Below are positions 1,951 through 8,873 of a stretch of 24,000 bases of DNA, one piece after another. Position 1 is the stretch's first letter; every line of letters begins with the position of its first letter. Source of the DNA: Lysobacterales bacterium (GTDB taxonomy: Bacteria; Pseudomonadota; Gammaproteobacteria; Xanthomonadales; SZUA-36); the NCBI GenBank assembly GCA_963665545.2, contig CAXXKZ010000007.1:111378-135377 (forward strand), given 5' to 3'. The notes below the pieces were generated by a model. The model was not told the DNA's origin and made no database searches. It saw nothing but the letters and a program-made list of their open reading frames with translations. A program made the position numbers and the translations under genes.

Positions 1951-3851
1951 TCTGGGCCTAAAGCACGGTTCAGCGAACTCAGCTGCCTGCGCACCAGCTC
2001 AGACTGAGGGTTGAGTGCCAGTACTTTGCGCAAATGGACCCGCGCTTCTCTGAGTTTCGGCGGGCTCTTGGGGTAAAGCCGTATGAGCATGTAGCCGCGC
2101 TTGTACGCCTTGTAAAAGTCACTGGTCTCGGTTGCAATGGAGTGCTCGAACTGATTTCTGGCCTTTTCATTCTGACCGGTCATGGCGTATATCTGACCGA
2201 GCTCAAAGTGAGCGGCGGTGCGCTTGCCCGACTCTTCAGTCAATCGTATGAAGGCCGCTTCTGCTTGCTCAAGCTTGCCCAGGCCAATGAGTACGTAGGC
2301 GCATTTTAACTCCAGGTTGTCAGTTTGAATGACTTTGTCTTGATGCGCCTGACACACTGCGTTGGCCTTGCCCTGCTGACCTTCCCTGAGGTGCGCGTCG
2401 ACGAGGGCGGTGATGGCGCGGGACTTCGGATCGGGCAGTCTGACGATACTTTCAAAAAGTTTTACGTTGCTGGCCCAGTCGGCGTTTCTGGCCCAGGTCA
2501 GCGGCGTCAGGATGAATGCATAGAGCGCAACCATGATGACTGCTGCCCGAATGTTGGATCGCTTCACCAAACCGCCAAGGGCAAAGGCCAGCAAAATGGT
2601 CAGTCCGACCGATGGCAGATAGAGGAATCTTTCATACAGGTTTGCAGAACTCCCATCCCCGCCAACAATCTGGCTTGAGGGCAGTAGGGCGATATAGAAA
2701 AGCAGCAGACCGATCAAGGGCCCGGCCGTTCCGTGCGCGTACCAATACAAGGCCAGTCCGAGCAATGCCAATTGAATCCCCAGGGCCAGCACGGCGTTGG
2801 TGTCAGATCTGTTGTGGTAGATCGTCAATGGATGAGGCCAGACTGTAAGCCCCAGCGCATCAAACCAAATCTTTGAGATGTGCTTGATGTCAGGAGCGGT
2901 GAATTTCAGGGTCGAGACTGCCCGGGCATCCGCTTGGGCATTATCGCGGGTGCCTGACTCGGTTGCTGCCGAATCCGGCGCTTCGGTGGAATCATCGATG
3001 AGCGTGCTCCTGACCTCGGTGGGCGAACTGAAAATGTTTTCGAACGGCACAACACCATCAAGCGCAAACGCACGCATTAAGAGAAAGACGCCAAGCGGTA
3101 GCAAGAGCAATATCGCCGGCGCACAATCGCGCAGGCGTTGCAGCCAGGAACCGGTGTGAGTCAGGTAAATCAGCACGACCACAAGTCCGGGAAGTGCAGC
3201 GGCAGATTCACGGCACAGCAATACCGCAAAGTAAATCAACCCCAGCCCCAGCCAGGCTTTGAGGATCTGTGATTCCTGGTGGCGAAGAAACCAACACAAA
3301 CCGCCGACCGTACCTATGGTGGCAAGCATTTCCGATCTGTTGAAAATCGAATTGACCACTTCGGTGTGAATCGGATGCACGCAAAAAACCACAGCCGCAA
3401 GCAACGCCAAGCGCGCGGACAGGTCACTTGCTGTGCCACCGATTTTCAACAAATCACGAGTTAACACAAAAACCAGCGAAGTGGCCAGCAGGTGAAGCGC
3501 AATATTGACGAAGTGGTAACCGGCCAGCCAGGCGCCGAAGACTGAGGTATCCAGCGCAATGGAAACCATCAGCAAGGGCCGGTACAGACCCGTGTTCAAG
3601 CCAATGGAGGACCACAGATCCTGAGTAAAATATTCTCCAATATCACCCAGCCGCAGACCCTTGAACAGGTCAGTAGGAATGACGGCCAGGTCGTCCATAA
3701 CGGCCTGGTCAGTCCAGCCGTTCGCAAATGTGATGACGGTGATCACCGTCAGGATGAGGTAAGGCAAAGTTGAGGGAGGCAGCTGCATTGAGCGCCGCGG
3801 CGACGGTTGATTGCTCGGCTGCTTCATTCGTGACCGGCTGCGGCGCGACAT
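1947..3851 (-). CDS. TMTC-like polytopic membrane protein with C-terminal TPR repeats (GT-C-type glycosyltransferase-like), intact paralog
   Basis: 634-aa ORF. Basic cytoplasmic N-terminus, then TM1, then a VMDD acidic loop motif typical of GT-C enzymes. About 10 or more hydrophobic segments, a DUF1736-like HPIHTEVVNSIFNRSE block and a TPR-like C-terminus (LGKLEQAEAAFIRL...HFELGQIYAMTGQNEKARNQFEHSI). Family assignment is from memory, not searched. Confidence 0.85.
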   Translation of the reverse strand: MSRRSRSRMKQPSNQPSPRRSMQLPPSTLPYLILTVITVITFANGWTDQAVMDDLAVIPTDLFKGLRLGDIGEYFTQDLWSSIGLNTGLYRPLLMVSIALDTSVFGAWLAGYHFVNIALHLLATSLVFVLTRDLLKIGGTASDLSARLALLAAVVFCVHPIHTEVVNSIFNRSEMLATIGTVGGLCWFLRHQESQILKAWLGLGLIYFAVLLCRESAAALPGLVVVLIYLTHTGSWLQRLRDCAPAILLLLPLGVFLLMRAFALDGVVPFENIFSSPTEVRSTLIDDSTEAPDSAATESGTRDNAQADARAVSTLKFTAPDIKHISKIWFDALGLTVWPHPLTIYHNRSDTNAVLALGIQLALLGLALYWYAHGTAGPLIGLLLFYIALLPSSQIVGGDGSSANLYERFLYLPSVGLTILLAFALGGLVKRSNIRAAVIMVALYAFILTPLTWARNADWASNVKLFESIVRLPDPKSRAITALVDAHLREGQQGKANAVCQAHQDKVIQTDNLELKCAYVLIGLGKLEQAEAAFIRLTEESGKRTAAHFELGQIYAMTGQNEKARNQFEHSIATETSDFYKAYKRGYMLIRLYPKSPPKLREARVHLRKVLALNPQSELVRRQLSSLNRALGPE

Positions 3852-3888
3852 CAGCGGAGTCTACGGCTTCGGTACCCTTGCTTCAAGC

Positions 3889-4572
3889 CTAGCGTCGCAA
3901 TATGGCCCACCACCTGGCGACGTTGAGCAGGCTCATCAAGGATGCCGACACATAGGTCAGGGCCGCGGCGCGCAACAGGCGCCGGGCGTGAGGTAAGTCG
4001 GACTCGGTCAGAATGTTTTGCTGTTTCAGTAGCGGCATGGCGCGGCCGAAACTGGCGTCAAACTCGGTGGGCAGGGTGAGCAGGTGCATCAGCACGCCCG
4101 AGCCCAGCGTCATCAGGCCGCCGAAAATCATCAGCAACCCTGCAACCGGCGCCCGGGTAATGCCGATGATCAGTGGTGCGGCCATCATCAGCGCCGCGCC
4201 GGTTTTTTCAACCGGGCGGACCCAGCGCACCAGCCGGGTGCGCCACAGCAGCGGAATATAGCCGCTGGCGTGCTGCTGGGCGTGGCCGACCTCGTGCGCG
4301 GCTATGGTGATGGCGGTCAGTGAGTGGCTCTGATAATTTTCCGCGGACAAACGCACCATCCGCTGCTCCGGATCGTAGTGGTCGCCCGCGTCACTGACTT
4401 CAGTGCCGACTTCTGTGAGCCCCAATTCATCGAGCAGGTGCCGCGCCAGTTCACCACCCGATCCCGCGTAGCGATCCGCCGGTTGGCTGTAACGGCCCAT
4501 CACCCGGCGAACCCAAACTGATGGTCCCAGGACAGCGACCAGAAGGATGACGATGATGATCAAATAGGGCAT
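3889..4572 (-). CDS. Membrane zinc metallopeptidase, YugP-like (Zn_peptidase_2 family)
   Basis: 227-aa ORF. N-terminal TM segment (YLIIIVILLVAVLGPSVWV), HExxH motif (AAHEVGHAQQH) and C-terminal hydrophobic segments. Lies 37 bp upstream of the TMTC-like paralogs on the same strand. Confidence 0.85.
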   Translation of the reverse strand: MPYLIIIVILLVAVLGPSVWVRRVMGRYSQPADRYAGSGGELARHLLDELGLTEVGTEVSDAGDHYDPEQRMVRLSAENYQSHSLTAITIAAHEVGHAQQHASGYIPLLWRTRLVRWVRPVEKTGAALMMAAPLIIGITRAPVAGLLMIFGGLMTLGSGVLMHLLTLPTEFDASFGRAMPLLKQQNILTESDLPHARRLLRAAALTYVSASLMSLLNVARWWAILRR

Positions 4573-4623: not shown

Positions 4624-4777
4624 CCGCCTTCGGCGGAAGGCGGCTGCGCGCGACGGCATTTAACTTAGTCTGGCTTCGCCAGCCATGGCCGGTGACGAAG
4701 GGGGTACGGTTTCGCCGTAGGCGAAGAAGTGCCCGATGAGCGCCGTAGCGCGTAGGCGGCTGCACGCGCGACGGCAT
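4624..4777. repeat. GC-rich hairpin and direct-repeat cluster (REP-like) in a divergent intergenic region
   Basis: Perfect hairpin CCGCCTTC-GGCG-GAAGGCGG (4624-4643). Hairpin TTCGCC-GTA-GGCGAA (4711-4725). CTTCG...CGAAG arms at 4674-4678 and 4696-4700. Direct repeat GGCGGCTGCGCGCGACGGCAT (4639-4659) vs GGCGGCTGCACGCGCGACGGCAT (4755-4777; identical apart from a 2-nt AC insertion). CGCCGTAG recurs at 4713 and 4741. Confidence 0.7.
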
Positions 4778-4844
4778 GCACAAGGCGACTCTTCGCAGAT
4801 TTTGGGGGTTGGTATTCGGGGCTCGTTCGGCGATCATAGCCGGC

Positions 4845-6275
4845 ATGGATAATGTAGCAAGCAACGCGCTGGAACCGGACGGTGAGCGGATGCGGGAAAT
4901 GGTCAATAGCGTCATGGACCACATCGTGCCGCTGTTGACGACTTTGAATGATCAGCCAATGGATGGCACCGCCGACTCGACGCCGGAGTTTCTTGAGTCA
5001 CTGATCGAGCCGTTGCCGCAATCTGGCGCTAATTTCGATGCCCTGATGGACCAGTTGTTCGATGATTTACTGCCCAAATCCGTCAACACGATTTCGGGTG
5101 GCTTCATGGCCTACATCGGTTGCGGGGGAATTTTCGAGGCCGCTGTGGCGGACCTGATTGCCAACAGCCTCAATCGCTATACCGGCACGGCTGCGGAGGG
5201 TTCGGCCCTGGTGCAGATTGAAGCCAATGTCGTTCGCTGGTTTTGCGACATCATGGGTTTGCCGGATACAGCGGGCGGCTTCTTGTGCTCCGGCGGCTCG
5301 ATCGCCAATCTTAGCGGGGTCATCACAGCGCGCCACATCAAATTGGGCGAGGATTTTTCCAGGGGCACAATTTATATATCCGATCAGACCCACCATTGCG
5401 TCGCCAAAGCGGTGCGTTTGGCGGGCATACCCAGGGCAAATCTGCGGGTCTTGCCGGCCGATGAGCATTTTCGGCTTGATCCAGAGCGCGTTCGGGCGGC
5501 CATCAAAGAGGATCGTGATCGCGGCATGCAACCCTTCCTGCTGGTGGGCAGTGGCGGAACGACCAATACCGGCGCCATTGACCCCCTCGATGAATGCGCG
5601 GACCTCGCCCGTGAAGAAGACCTCTGGTTTCATGTCGACGGCGCTTATGGCGGGTTTTTCCGGCTGACAGAACGCGGCAAGCAAGCCTTGAAGGGAATTG
5701 AGCGGGCAGATTCGGTGGTCCTCGATCCGCACAAGACCCTGTTTCTTCCCTACGGGACCGGGGCACTGGTGGTGCGTGACCGTGAAACGTTGCTGCGTAC
5801 CCACCGCCAATCAGCCGACTACATGCCCGATTCAAGAGCTGAAAGTGGGCTGATGGAATTCTGCGAACTGTCACCGGAGTTGACCAAGCCATTTAGGGGC
5901 TTGCGCGTGTGGCTGCCAATGAAGCTCCATGGTGTGGGTGTTTTTCGCGACCGGCTGGACGAGAAGCTCGACTTGATCCGATGGGTGGAAAGCCGGATCA
6001 GAGAGGTAGCGGAGCTCGAAGTGCTGGCCGAGCCGGAACTATCGGTGGTCGCTTTTGCCATCCGCGACACCGGCCAGTCGCTGGCGCAACGCAACGCTCA
6101 GTCACGCCAGTTGATCAATGACATCAACGCTCGGCAACATGTGTTTCTCAGCAGTACGAGCCTCAATGGCGTCTTTGCGCTGCGCATCGCCATCGTCTCG
6201 TTCCGCACACACAAAATGCATCTGCAATTGCTGGTGGACGATCTGAAAGCCGCGCTTGGCGACATGGCGCCCTGA
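4845..6275 (+). CDS. Pyridoxal-phosphate-dependent decarboxylase, group II (aromatic-amino-acid/tyrosine decarboxylase-like); substrate unknown
   Basis: The ORF runs 4776..6275. I prefer the ATG at 4845 (MDNVASN...) because the preceding 23 codons lie in the repeat region and look non-protein-like. SGGSIANL motif and the PLP-lysine motif LDPHKTLFLPYGTG. Confidence 0.85.
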   Translation: MDNVASNALEPDGERMREMVNSVMDHIVPLLTTLNDQPMDGTADSTPEFLESLIEPLPQSGANFDALMDQLFDDLLPKSVNTISGGFMAYIGCGGIFEAAVADLIANSLNRYTGTAAEGSALVQIEANVVRWFCDIMGLPDTAGGFLCSGGSIANLSGVITARHIKLGEDFSRGTIYISDQTHHCVAKAVRLAGIPRANLRVLPADEHFRLDPERVRAAIKEDRDRGMQPFLLVGSGGTTNTGAIDPLDECADLAREEDLWFHVDGAYGGFFRLTERGKQALKGIERADSVVLDPHKTLFLPYGTGALVVRDRETLLRTHRQSADYMPDSRAESGLMEFCELSPELTKPFRGLRVWLPMKLHGVGVFRDRLDEKLDLIRWVESRIREVAELEVLAEPELSVVAFAIRDTGQSLAQRNAQSRQLINDINARQHVFLSSTSLNGVFALRIAIVSFRTHKMHLQLLVDDLKAALGDMAP

Positions 6276-6289
6276 GGGAGGGCGCTAAC

Positions 6290-6890
6290 TGTGAATTCCA
6301 GCAACGTTTTTCACAAAAAGTGCGCCAAAATCTAGTTGGTTCTCAGCTCATCGTTCGAATGGGCTGGGGTATCTGCGTTTGTCATTTTTGTCAGGGAGCC
6401 GGCTGAGAGTAACAGTGCTGTTTCCAGGACACGCCACCAGTACATCCCTGTAAGCTCGGATGCGTCATCCCTGACGCATACGGCCCTGGAAGCAGCACTA
6501 TCACTCTTTCCGGCTTTGACCAACTGATGGCACATAGGGGTCACAAATGTCGTCCATTTGACGCGTGTGTCATGCCATTGGCTGCCCCAGGGCGGTTGCG
6601 GTCGTTTAAGCCCAGGAACCGCACCGTGGCAGCAAAGTGTCGTGAGGGGGTTATGGTTCGTTCCGTCAAGGTGGATGCCGAGGGACGACAAGCGACTGGG
6701 TCGCTGGTCCATGGATGGACCAGCGAGGCGATAGGGAACAGGATGTTCCGTGGAGCCGACCCACCAAGCGCGGAGGAGTGAGGGAAGCCCGTCGGGCCAT
6801 CCGCCAGGAGCGAACCATAACCCCCGCACGACACTTTGCGGTAACGATGGCACCAAACCTCACGTGTGAACAACGTTGCTGGAATTCACA
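6290..6890. mobile_element. 601-bp non-autonomous (MITE-like) element with 19-bp perfect terminal inverted repeats, flanked by a 6-bp direct repeat GCTAAC (6284-6289 and 6891-6896)
   Basis: TGTGAATTCCAGCAACGTT (6290-6308) is the exact reverse complement of AACGTTGCTGGAATTCACA (6872-6890). The match extends to 25/26 with TTCACA. The identical hexamer GCTAAC abuts both ends. There is no credible ORF inside, only overlapping multi-frame W/P/R-rich ORFs. The interior is rich in long helices. Confidence 0.6.
6632..6839. repeat. Internal long inverted repeat (29-nt arms, 28/29 complementary) enclosing about 150 nt
   Basis: GCAAAGTGTCGTGAGGGGGTTATGGTTCG (6632-6660) vs CGAACCATAACCCCCGCACGACACTTTGC (6811-6839). 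The single mismatch is 6645 with 6826. Extendable by 4 more pairs inward (6661-6664 with 6807-6810). The enclosed region holds an 11-bp perfect hairpin, TCGCTGGTCCA-TGGA-TGGACCAGCGA (6701-6726). Confidence 0.85.
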
Positions 6891-6891
6891 G

Positions 6892-8238
6892 CTAACCCAC
6901 CCCTGCGCTGCATTTCTTGACCACGGCCACGATGGCGCCTGTCAGCGTTTCAAGCTGCTCAGCAGATATCACGTACGGCGGCATGACGTAGATTAATTGG
7001 CCAAAGGGCCGGACCCAAACTCCCTCGGCAACGAACATGCGCTGCACTTCGGCCATGTCCACTGCCTTTTCCATCTCCACCACACCGATGCTGCCCAGCA
7101 CCCGCACATCGTTGACGCCGTCGATGGTGGTGCACGGCGCCAGCCCTGCCCGAAGTGCGGTGGCAATCCCCTGCACCTGTTCGGGCCATGGTGACGCAGA
7201 CAACAGGTCAATGCTGGCCACGGCCACCGCGCAGGCCAGCGGATTGGCCATAAAGGTCGGGCCGTGCATGAACAATCCACCGGTATTCGCCGCGGACGAG
7301 ATGGTGGCGGCAATGCAAGCGCTGGTCACGGTGGCTCCGAGACTCATAAACCCACCCGTCAGCGCCTTGCCGATACAGATAATGTCCGGTGTAACGCCGG
7401 CGTGCTCGCAGGCAAACATCTTGCCGGTTCTGCCGAAGCCGGTGGCAATTTCATCGCAGATCAGCAACAGACCGTATTCATCGCACAGCGCGCGGGCCTG
7501 GGCCAGGTACTGTGGGTGATAGAACCACATGCCGCCCGCGGCCTGCACGATGGGTTCGAGAATAATTGCAGCCAATTCGTGATGGTGACGGGCCACCAAT
7601 TCAGCCAATGGCACGACATCTTGCGGGTCCCAGTCGGCGTCGAACCGCGTGCGGGGCTGGGGCGCGAAGACCTGCTCGGTAACCATGCCGCCAAACAGAT
7701 CGTGCATGCCCGTAACCGGGTCGCATACCGACATCGCCATAAAGGTGTCGCCGTGGTAGCCCGACCGGATCGTCAACAGGCGGCGCCGGTTCTCCTCAGC
7801 CTGCGCCAGCCAGTATTGGAACGCCATCTTGATGGCCACTTCCACGGCCACCGAACCCGAATCGCTATAGAAAATCCGCTCGAGCCCGGCCGGCAGCAGA
7901 TCGATCAGCCTGCGGCCCAGTTCAATAGCGGGTTCATGCGTGATGCCACCGAACATCACGTGCGGCATTTTTGCAATCTGATCGGCAGCGGCCGCGTTCA
8001 GCACCGGGTGGTTGTAGCCGTGAATAGCGGTCCACCACGAGGACATGCCGTCGATCAGCCAACGACCGTCGGCGAGCTGCAATTGCACACCATCGGCCGC
8101 CTGTACCGGGTATACCGGCAGCGGGTCCGACATGGAAGTGTATGGATGCCACAGGTGATTGCGGTCAAAGGCCAGTTGATCGTCCAAATTCCGCTTCGAG
8201 CGGTCCCACGAGGCCTTTTTTGGGCGGCCGCCCGTCAC
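6892..8238 (-). CDS. bioA: Adenosylmethionine-8-amino-7-oxononanoate aminotransferase
   Basis: Strong recalled similarity to E. coli BioA: [71 protein letters not shown] chose the GTG start at 8236-8238, which overlaps the bioD TGA as GTGA. Alternatives are ATG at 8265 (ORF-track start) or TTG at 8187 (giving MDDQLAFD..., closest to the E. coli N-terminus). Confidence 0.95.
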
Positions 8239-8873
8239 TGCCAGTCGCCCAATTGAGCTGCACACTGCCGCACAAAGGTGGCTGACACCTCGGGGGCGAG
8301 TGGAATATCCAGCAGGACCGGCAGCCCTGTTCGCTCGACGATCACCGCCCTTGATGATTGACTGCCCTCGCCGTCGGACCCGGTGTTGTTGAAGACAATG
8401 CCGTGAATTGCAATGCCGCGCGATCGCAGTGCATCGACCGACAGCAAGCTGTGGTTGATGCTGCCGAGATAGAGATTGGCCACCAACACGACCGGCAAGC
8501 CCCAGTCACCTATCAGGTCCAGGTTGCTCAGACCATCGCTCAAAGGCACCATCAGGCCACCGGCGGGCTCTACCACCAGGAATCGTGCGGTGCGCGGAAG
8601 CTGCAGGGATGCACGGTCAATTTCCAGCCCGTCTATCTCAGCCGCGGCATGAGGCGACATGGGGCGGCTGAGGCGGAAGGCTTCAGGGTGCACCTCGCCG
8701 CCGTCTGCAAGCCGGGCAACCGTCATGCTGTCTGAGTTCTCAAGCTCACCGGCTTGAACGGGTTTCCAGTAGTCGGCGGTGTAACGCTCGACGAATATTG
8801 CAGCAGCAAGGGTCTTGCCGACTCCGGTCCCTATCCCCGCGATGACGCAGCCGTGCACGTGTGCTCTCCCCAA
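8235..8873 (-). CDS. bioD: Dethiobiotin synthetase
   Basis: 212-aa ORF with an N-terminal P-loop (GIGTGVGKT), a YWKPVQAG motif, and a position between bioF and bioA. The start is uncertain: ATG at 8873 overlaps the bioF end by 43 nt, and an in-frame GTG at 8856-8858 is an alternative. Confidence 0.9.

Follow-up and report, generated by a model that had tools for sequence, protein, structure and literature searches.

The window analysed here is a 24,000-nt stretch of a Lysobacterales bacterium (contig CAXXKZ010000007.1 of assembly GCA_963665545.2; source contig record ENA ERZ28669063, ctg73275, 1.42 Mb) that encodes a Zn-peptidase, a pyridoxal phosphate (PLP)-dependent decarboxylase and then, on the opposite strand, the run bioA-bioD-bioF-bioB, with Pfam matches to Aminotran_3, AAA_26, Aminotran_1_2 and Radical_SAM plus BATS. 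A 601-bp insert separates the decarboxylase from bioA. Our analysis indicates that this insert is very probably a non-autonomous transposon of the IS481 family, that is, a miniature inverted-repeat transposable element (MITE), carrying a divergent doublet of RNAs of the TwoAYGGAY class. The features of the junction, in window coordinates, are the following.

4776-6275, plus strand: gene for the PLP-dependent decarboxylase (Pyridoxal_deC, 180.9 bits; gene call of 476 amino acids, aa); its stop codon precedes the insertion by 8 nt
6284-6289: left copy of the target-site duplication, GCTAAC, identical to 6891-6896
6290-6315 (exact core 6290-6308), plus strand: left terminal inverted repeat, of the right-inverted-repeat (IRR) type, matching the right end at 19 of 19 positions; the same 19-mer forms the transposase-3' end of an autonomous insertion sequence (IS)
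6332-6856, minus strand: spurious 174-aa open reading frame (ORF) inside the element, without a Pfam match; a 173-aa gene in the public record (L060)
6397-6516, minus strand: module 1 ("type II"), with an outer stem at about 6408-6505 and two apical hairpins
6441-6452 and 6457-6482, minus strand: hairpins of module 1 in the predicted fold, with loops UACAGGGAUGUA (6441-6452) and UCAGGGAUGA (stem 6457-6482)
6517-6621: spacer in the middle of the element, bordered by the 5' sides of both modules, partly conserved in a second copy (L065) and without a sigma-70 promoter in a consensus scan
6622-6849, plus strand: module 2 ("type I"), TwoAYGGAY-like, with basal stem 6622-6664 / 6807-6849 and core 6668-6808
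6701-6726 and 6734-6749, plus strand: hairpins of module 2 in the predicted fold, with loops CAUGGAUG and ACAGGAUGU, respectively
6865-6890 (exact core 6872-6890), minus strand: right terminal inverted repeat, IRR type, matching the left end at 19 of 19 positions
6891-6896: right copy of the target-site duplication, GCTAAC, including the bioA stop
6892-8265, minus strand: bioA, first gene of bioA-bioD-bioF-bioB (Pfam Aminotran_3)

At its two ends, 6290-6308 (TGTGAATTCCAGCAACGTT) and 6872-6890, the insert has sequences that are perfectly reverse-complementary, and at 85% the repeat can be followed over 6277-6315 and 6865-6903. With up to three mismatches allowed, the 19-mer occurs at two places only in the 24 kb, both of them insert ends; shuffled versions of the window gave 0.01 matches, and none of 100 shuffles contained two. 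The hexamer GCTAAC lies directly outside both ends (6284-6289 and 6891-6896), and the TAG stop of bioA on the minus strand is the complement of 6892-6894, within the right-hand hexamer. The duplication thus regenerated the TAG, and bioA stayed intact. Our results agree on each of these points with an earlier sequence-only reading of the window, which had described perfect 19-bp inverted repeats, a hexamer repeated on both outer sides and a bioA stop preserved within its right-hand copy. That reading had also credited the interior with no credible coding capacity, and this holds: the lone long ORF lacks a Pfam match, and its database relatives are solely ORFs that gene callers placed in further copies of the element, some of which read through the inverted end. 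A search for tRNA and tmRNA genes in the window found nothing.

The same inverted end belongs to a complete IS. An exact scan for the 19-mer, with one genome per species, found it in 59 genome stretches, about 20 of them in one Terriglobia metagenome-assembled genome (MAG) and the remainder mostly in Gammaproteobacteria MAGs (Wenzhouxiangellaceae, Lysobacterales, Ectothiorhodospiraceae, Oceanospirillum); a scan of metagenomes found it in at least 120 stretches. The Terriglobia copies, about 20 in that single MAG, constitute an IS of about 1,037 bp with mutual identities of 99.7-99.9%. Its 316-aa transposase ORF enters the 19-mer (...NVAGIHS) and stops at a TAG in the flank; it matches the Pfam models rve (66 bits), rve_3 (54.4 bits), LZ_Tnp_IS481 (38.1 bits, cut-off 22.2) and several helix-turn-helix models, and a close homologue is 52% identical to the IS481 transposase of Bordetella pertussis. 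The best plasmid matches of the transposase are annotated as IS481 family transposases at about 50% identity, and the annotated plasmid collection held no named match for this IS beyond that 50% identity. Four more full-length copies from metagenomes (L108, L085, L070 and L166) share a conserved left end (TGTGAATTCTGTGAAGGTTGTTCACA; the left inverted repeat of the partner is written as TGTGAATTCTGTGAAGGTTGT) and the same right end, and they end, as do the Terriglobia copies, in ...ATT CAC AGC TAG with the stop in the flank. The ends of the window element are identical at 19 of 19 positions to the IRR of these four copies and of L001 and others. Because the full-length copies have a distinct conserved left end and carry the 19-mer at the right, the 19-mer of the window is assigned to the IRR, and the window element appears from its sequence to have an IRR-type end on both sides. 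The family assignment that the sequence-only reading had offered as an unverified guess, IS481, is supported by the right end of an IS with an rve plus LZ_Tnp_IS481 transposase and by flanks of the NCTAGN type.

The exact 19-mer is shared between an Acidobacteriota (Terriglobia) MAG, CBDCFM01 (L001-L055), and several Gammaproteobacteria MAGs; its presence in two phyla reflects spread between them or else a problem of binning. One further hit, in Cyclobacterium (L054), looks unrelated. Some ends are preceded by the last 29-73 transposase codons alone (L026 4446-4610; L162, L181, L124 and L113), and they have the appearance of deletion intermediates on the way from the full IS to the short elements. 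The inverted end gave chance-level matches only against plasmids, and viral contigs scanned for the inverted end and for the module pattern yielded nothing.

Target-site preference provided a second line of evidence. Members of the IS481 family duplicate NCTAGN, whose TAG ends the transposase reading frame and may also end that of an adjacent gene (PMC6794481, PMC2516522); this rule accounts for the position of the window element precisely at the bioA stop and for the intact state of bioA. Nearly every end in our comparison set is flanked by CTAGC, CTAAC or a close variant. Among 53 elements with both ends present (40 short elements and 13 full IS copies), the two 6-bp flanks agree completely in 12, compared with 2.35 expected from shuffling of partners, and none of 20,000 shuffles reached 12 (p < 5e-5); the matched pairs include the rare hexamers CCTAGG, GCTAAT and GTTAGG. 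An active Terriglobia IS copy (L022) has GCTAAC on both sides, as in the window, which is the CTAA variant of NCTAGN.

Our survey of facing 19-mer pairs, 102-641 bp apart, retrieved 43 pairs over all loci, corresponding to 40 distinct short non-coding elements. With these the window element shares, by blastn, only its ends of about 26 nt. Such siblings are multi-copy within single MAGs, with nine loci in a Wenzhouxiangellaceae MAG and four in each of two others. At the lower extreme, opposite-strand 19-mers overlap at AACGTT to form a 32-bp perfect palindrome consisting of ends only (L069 10111-10142 and L132 7171-7202), flanked in L069 by CCTAGC and GCTAGC. Further copies of the window element were sought with the ORF that gene callers place inside it. 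An 878-bp contig (L065) carries the right 545 nt of the element at 85% identity and closes with the inverted end followed by GCTAGA, beside a different gene; by our reading, this may be an RNase HII-like gene that meets the element at its 3' end. Two additional ORFs, P0123 and P0124, continue across the inverted end (CEQRCWNS); they lie on contigs of 1.6 Mb and 0.33 Mb, respectively or in the reverse order, and probably represent two more copies. Against plasmids and Escherichia coli genomes, blastn with the window element found nothing, nor did blastn with the sibling L030 against plasmids. The proposal of the sequence-only reading that the insert is a MITE is thus upheld by the ends, the duplication, the non-coding interior and the related copies elsewhere; what that reading overlooked are the two structured RNA modules inside.

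Both modules fold far more stably than shuffled sequence (z = -7.38 for module 1 and -7.25 for module 2). Module 2 contains an inverted repeat with 43-nt arms that are 86% complementary, and is 94% identical in L065; module 1 has blastn relatives within inverted-end elements at 91% (L072), 94% (L159) and 83% (L100) identity. We built a model of type I from 12 units in other elements, leaving the window out, in an alignment in which 21 of the 38 consensus pairs are compensatory. This model recovered 6668-6808 of the window (36.4 bits, E 5e-9) as its sole hit in 24 kb, and 25 type I units over 617 kb. The type II model, likewise built without the window, recovered module 1 at 104.8 bits (E 1.5e-25) on the minus strand, compared with 30 bits on the plus strand, and 42 type II units in all. 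The 24-pair outer stem of type II is 93% paired, versus 72% in shuffles (none of 500 reached the observed value), with compensatory changes at 18 of 24 pairs, and pairing fell to 50% or less when the register was slid. On the strand bearing the GGA loops, G·U pairs outnumber A·C mismatches by 52 to 9 in type II and 70 to 11 in type I, counts taken from alignments fitted to models built on that same strand; this excess argues that the RNA is read from the GGA-loop strand. While the stems differ wholly between copies, the apical loops are kept (CAUGGAUG, ACAGGAUGU, YCAGGGAUGR and CGGGAA), and hairpins with GGA loops occur at 4.95 per kb inside the elements against 1.02 per kb in the background. 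These patterns indicate that the modules are RNA structures under selection.

Comparison with Rfam places module 2 closest to TwoAYGGAY (RF01731), whose architecture it fits, with two AYGGAY-type hairpins on a common basal stem supported by covariation. The TwoAYGGAY model scores above its threshold inside the siblings L030 (48.8 bits) and L041 (47.0 bits), and near it inside L025 (41.8 bits) and L052 (37.6 bits). The ARGGAU loops of module 1 are a variant that the Rfam TwoAYGGAY model does not match. A metagenome scan with the apex pattern of module 2 found nothing.

The modules stand in a fixed geometry to the transposon ends. An outward-facing end (TGTGAATTC...-type) lies within 300 nt 3' of 24 of the 25 type I modules and 30 of 41 type II modules, at distances that cluster around 67 and 101-109 nt (type I) and around 22, 35 and 85 nt (type II); most modules lacking a nearby end are at contig ends or beside decayed ends. 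All 18 two-module elements have a minus-then-plus order, i.e., they are divergent. Since module 3' ends face IRR-type ends at set distances, the building block is a module followed by an IRR, with the same polarity that the transposase gene has toward its IRR, and the window element consists of a type II and a type I block of this kind, joined head to head. The module types also recombine: the relatives of module 1 (83-94% identity) have other partner modules in L072 and L100. Module copies whose ends have decayed (12-16 of 19 positions) or are missing occur at L025 3789-3976 and L100 293-627, the latter a full divergent doublet; in these immobilised remnants the RNA structure is retained.

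In the most likely scenario, an IS481-family transposase, which would have acted in trans and recognised both IRR-type ends, inserted the element into an NCTAAN/NCTAGN target in which the TAG stop of bioA was already present, whereupon the 6-bp duplication regenerated that stop. As cargo, the element has the two RNA modules, placed head to head, where an autonomous IS has its transposase gene.

Several results weigh against this interpretation of the insert as an IS481-type MITE with an RNA cargo. The window contains no transposase, and none of the 120 closest transposases lies on the source contig. Perfect flank pairs were found in only 12 of 53 elements and many pairs differ at the outer positions; in addition, the base touching the element is mostly C on the left and G on the right while the outer bases vary, which a simple 6-bp duplication does not explain. 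These imperfect pairs and the C/G bias make either a duplication of exactly 6 bp or a simple history of the copies concerned somewhat less certain. The Rfam TwoAYGGAY score within the window (6698-6762, 38.1 bits) is below the gathering threshold of 43 and covers model positions 45-113 only. Ysr224 (RF02770) also scores in the window, at 31.4 bits against a gathering threshold of 70, at 6381-6487 on the plus strand, opposite to the GGA loops of module 1. At gathering level, the Rfam search proposed in the sequence-only reading returned no match over the whole window. Scans for sigma-70 promoters and intrinsic terminators identified no consensus in the element. Every comparison locus was chosen through its inverted end, so that the frequency of modules in such elements is biased, and decayed copies exist. 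Finally, a search through decarboxylase homologues, even the closest of which have about 70% identity or less, turned up no true empty site: these homologues are either not syntenic or have a ferredoxin-type (Fer4) gene at the junction. The empty site expected at the decarboxylase-bioA junction, as reconstructed, would read GGGAGGGCGCTAACCCACC. The Fer4-type genes encode 289-290 aa (L062 5579-6448 and L064 5572-6444), and no such gene is present in the window.

Could the insert instead be a small-RNA locus that is resident and passed on vertically, namely a TwoAYGGAY doublet whose inverted repeats are part of the RNA or of its regulation, with no transposon involved? Purifying selection on the structure of the interior, the persistence of some modules without intact ends and the fact that no second copy is shown in the 21 kb of the source genome covered would all be expected of such a locus. 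The sequence-only reading had regarded a conserved single-copy junction, with no copy elsewhere, as the pattern that would point in this direction. However, the same element lies beside a different gene in L065, and in the nearest syntenic relatives (66% amino-acid identity) the decarboxylase-bioA junction is free of it; its ends are identical to the IRR of a DDE transposon, recur at far more than 100 unrelated sites across several phyla, and show an excess of flank duplications. We therefore consider a resident locus highly improbable. It is only slightly easier to regard the insert as a functionless, decayed deletion derivative of an IS, with hairpins that are incidental MITE palindromes. 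MITEs are typically palindromic, versions consisting of the 32-bp ends alone or of about 100 bp exist, and some ends retain nothing but a C-terminal transposase fragment; yet the interior has no similarity to a transposase gene, two module types recur in different combinations, the stems change by compensation while the loop motifs stay fixed, and the preference for G·U over A·C is strand-specific, which together make mere decay improbable.

The nature of the cargo leaves more room for an alternative. The modules might act at the level of DNA or transcription, as bidirectional terminators, as stabilisers of mRNA 3' ends (like repetitive extragenic palindromic, REP, or ERIC sequences) or as aids to transposition, and not as protein-binding RNAs. 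The element does lie between two convergent genes, its stems are very stable and, as no promoter of its own was found, read-through from the flanking genes would be the simplest source of transcripts. No U-tract terminator appeared in the scan, however, and neither the conserved GGA loops nor the spacing of the paired hairpins is needed for termination, while the loops fit the binding consensus of CsrA at up to 11 of 12 positions; we regard this explanation as unlikely, albeit a stronger contender than either a resident locus or a decayed IS. Our preferred interpretation remains that of an IS481-family MITE with a divergent RNA doublet.

What those RNAs might do is suggested by their loops. 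In vitro selection (SELEX) defined the CsrA consensus as RUACARGGAUGU, with the GGA in a hairpin loop (PMC4347634), and CsrA binding by TwoAYGGAY RNAs was proposed from motif matches (PMC4333381). Four GGA-bearing hairpin loops of the window element match the CsrA/RsmA binding consensus, and the second hairpin of module 1 (UUACAGGGAUGU) does so at 11 of 12 positions. Transcription of the putative RNA modules is presumed here. If it occurs, each transcribed module may use its pair of GGA loops to bind a single CsrA/RsmA dimer, which would make the element a mobile decoy for that regulator; we give this tentative proposal somewhat less than an even chance.

The decoy idea invites comparison with the sponge RNAs CsrB/CsrC and RsmX/Y/Z, which likewise display repeated loop GGA motifs fitting the SELEX consensus of CsrA. 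Unlike them, the window modules carry two sites each on a long double-stranded basal stem and are transposon-borne, and they have neither sequence homology to the sponge RNAs nor a recognisable promoter or terminator of their own. With the TwoAYGGAY RNAs they share adjacent AYGGAY-loop hairpins on an elongated common stem, multiple copies, divergent doublets and the proposed Csr/Rsm link, whereas the window modules lie between IS481-type ends flanked by duplications, and the window copy is below the Rfam threshold. Insertion sequences of the IS481 family (IS481, IS1002, ISLxc2 and ISRe46/TnRErm46) have in common with the window element the TGT-initial ends, the 6-bp duplication of the NCTAGN type and the TAG that stops the transposase or a flanking gene; by contrast, the window element is devoid of a transposase and has IRR-type sequence at both ends, where its autonomous partner IS has a distinct left inverted repeat, and the passenger in the window is a structured RNA instead of a gene.

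Short non-coding MITEs such as Correia/NEMIS in Neisseria, ERIC, RUP and BOX also have inverted ends and lie in intergenic regions, often by stop codons, where they are co-transcribed with their neighbours. They belong to other transposase families and targets, and each forms one imperfect palindrome and not two modules with loops of a protein-binding type.

The weak Ysr224 similarity over module 1 (the 31.4-bit match) involves a hairpin, GCG.CAUCCCUG.CGC, and the motif UGUAAGCUCG, although the score is far below the gathering threshold and the match is on the strand opposite to the GGA loops. Ysr224 is reported to be among the most abundant annotated small RNAs if every instance is included (PMC9029176), and could thus be a repeat of the same sort in Yersinia. 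Other candidates were discarded. A CRP-type site for TGTGAA...TTCACA has the wrong spacing, and its inner half is not conserved among copies; a CRISPR repeat, an integron attC site, a REP/RAYT system, an IS200/605 hairpin element, a retron and a group II intron RNA are at odds with ends that belong to a DDE IS and with the lack of any such Rfam match.

A preprint of September 2026 reported that TwoAYGGAY RNAs of Pseudomonadota have extended structures and large differences in copy number, that divergent doublets are in excess (68%, with a median spacing of 249 bp) and that the expansion is mobile-element-like, with flanking short repeats and REP arrays and with its mechanism unresolved (bioRxiv 10.64898/2026.09.22.753630). 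IS481 does not figure in its text, nor do inverted repeats, target sites or MITEs; transposases appear there in another context only. Our literature searches likewise found nothing tying MITEs to CsrA or IS481 to MITEs. TwoAYGGAY is a widespread RNA family of unexplained function, and the IS481-type ends described here name a concrete, testable mechanism for its spread. More generally, TwoAYGGAY-class RNAs could be IS481-MITE passengers with a fixed polarity and spacing to the IRR, in which case a transposase acting in trans would copy CsrA/RsmA decoys within genomes and across phyla. This broader proposition is possible but, in our judgement, doubtful. If true, carriage by IS481-type MITEs would account for the copy-number swings and the divergent doublets left unresolved in that preprint. 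The MITE cargo described here is a conserved structured RNA with loops resembling the sites of a global regulator, neither junk nor a resistance gene, and transposition could shift the titration of the regulator besides disrupting genes.

There are also consequences for annotation. The CTAG/TAG target explains elements that lie exactly on stop codons, and gene callers place false ORFs inside the elements: proteins similar to the 173-aa one of the window element were called in P0121-P0124, some of them running on past the inverted end (..CEQRCWNS..). In another locus (L058), a 584-bp two-module element at 3447-4030 lies about 45 nt upstream of a cobalamin riboswitch (4075-4297), which passes its Rfam threshold at 110.6 bits.

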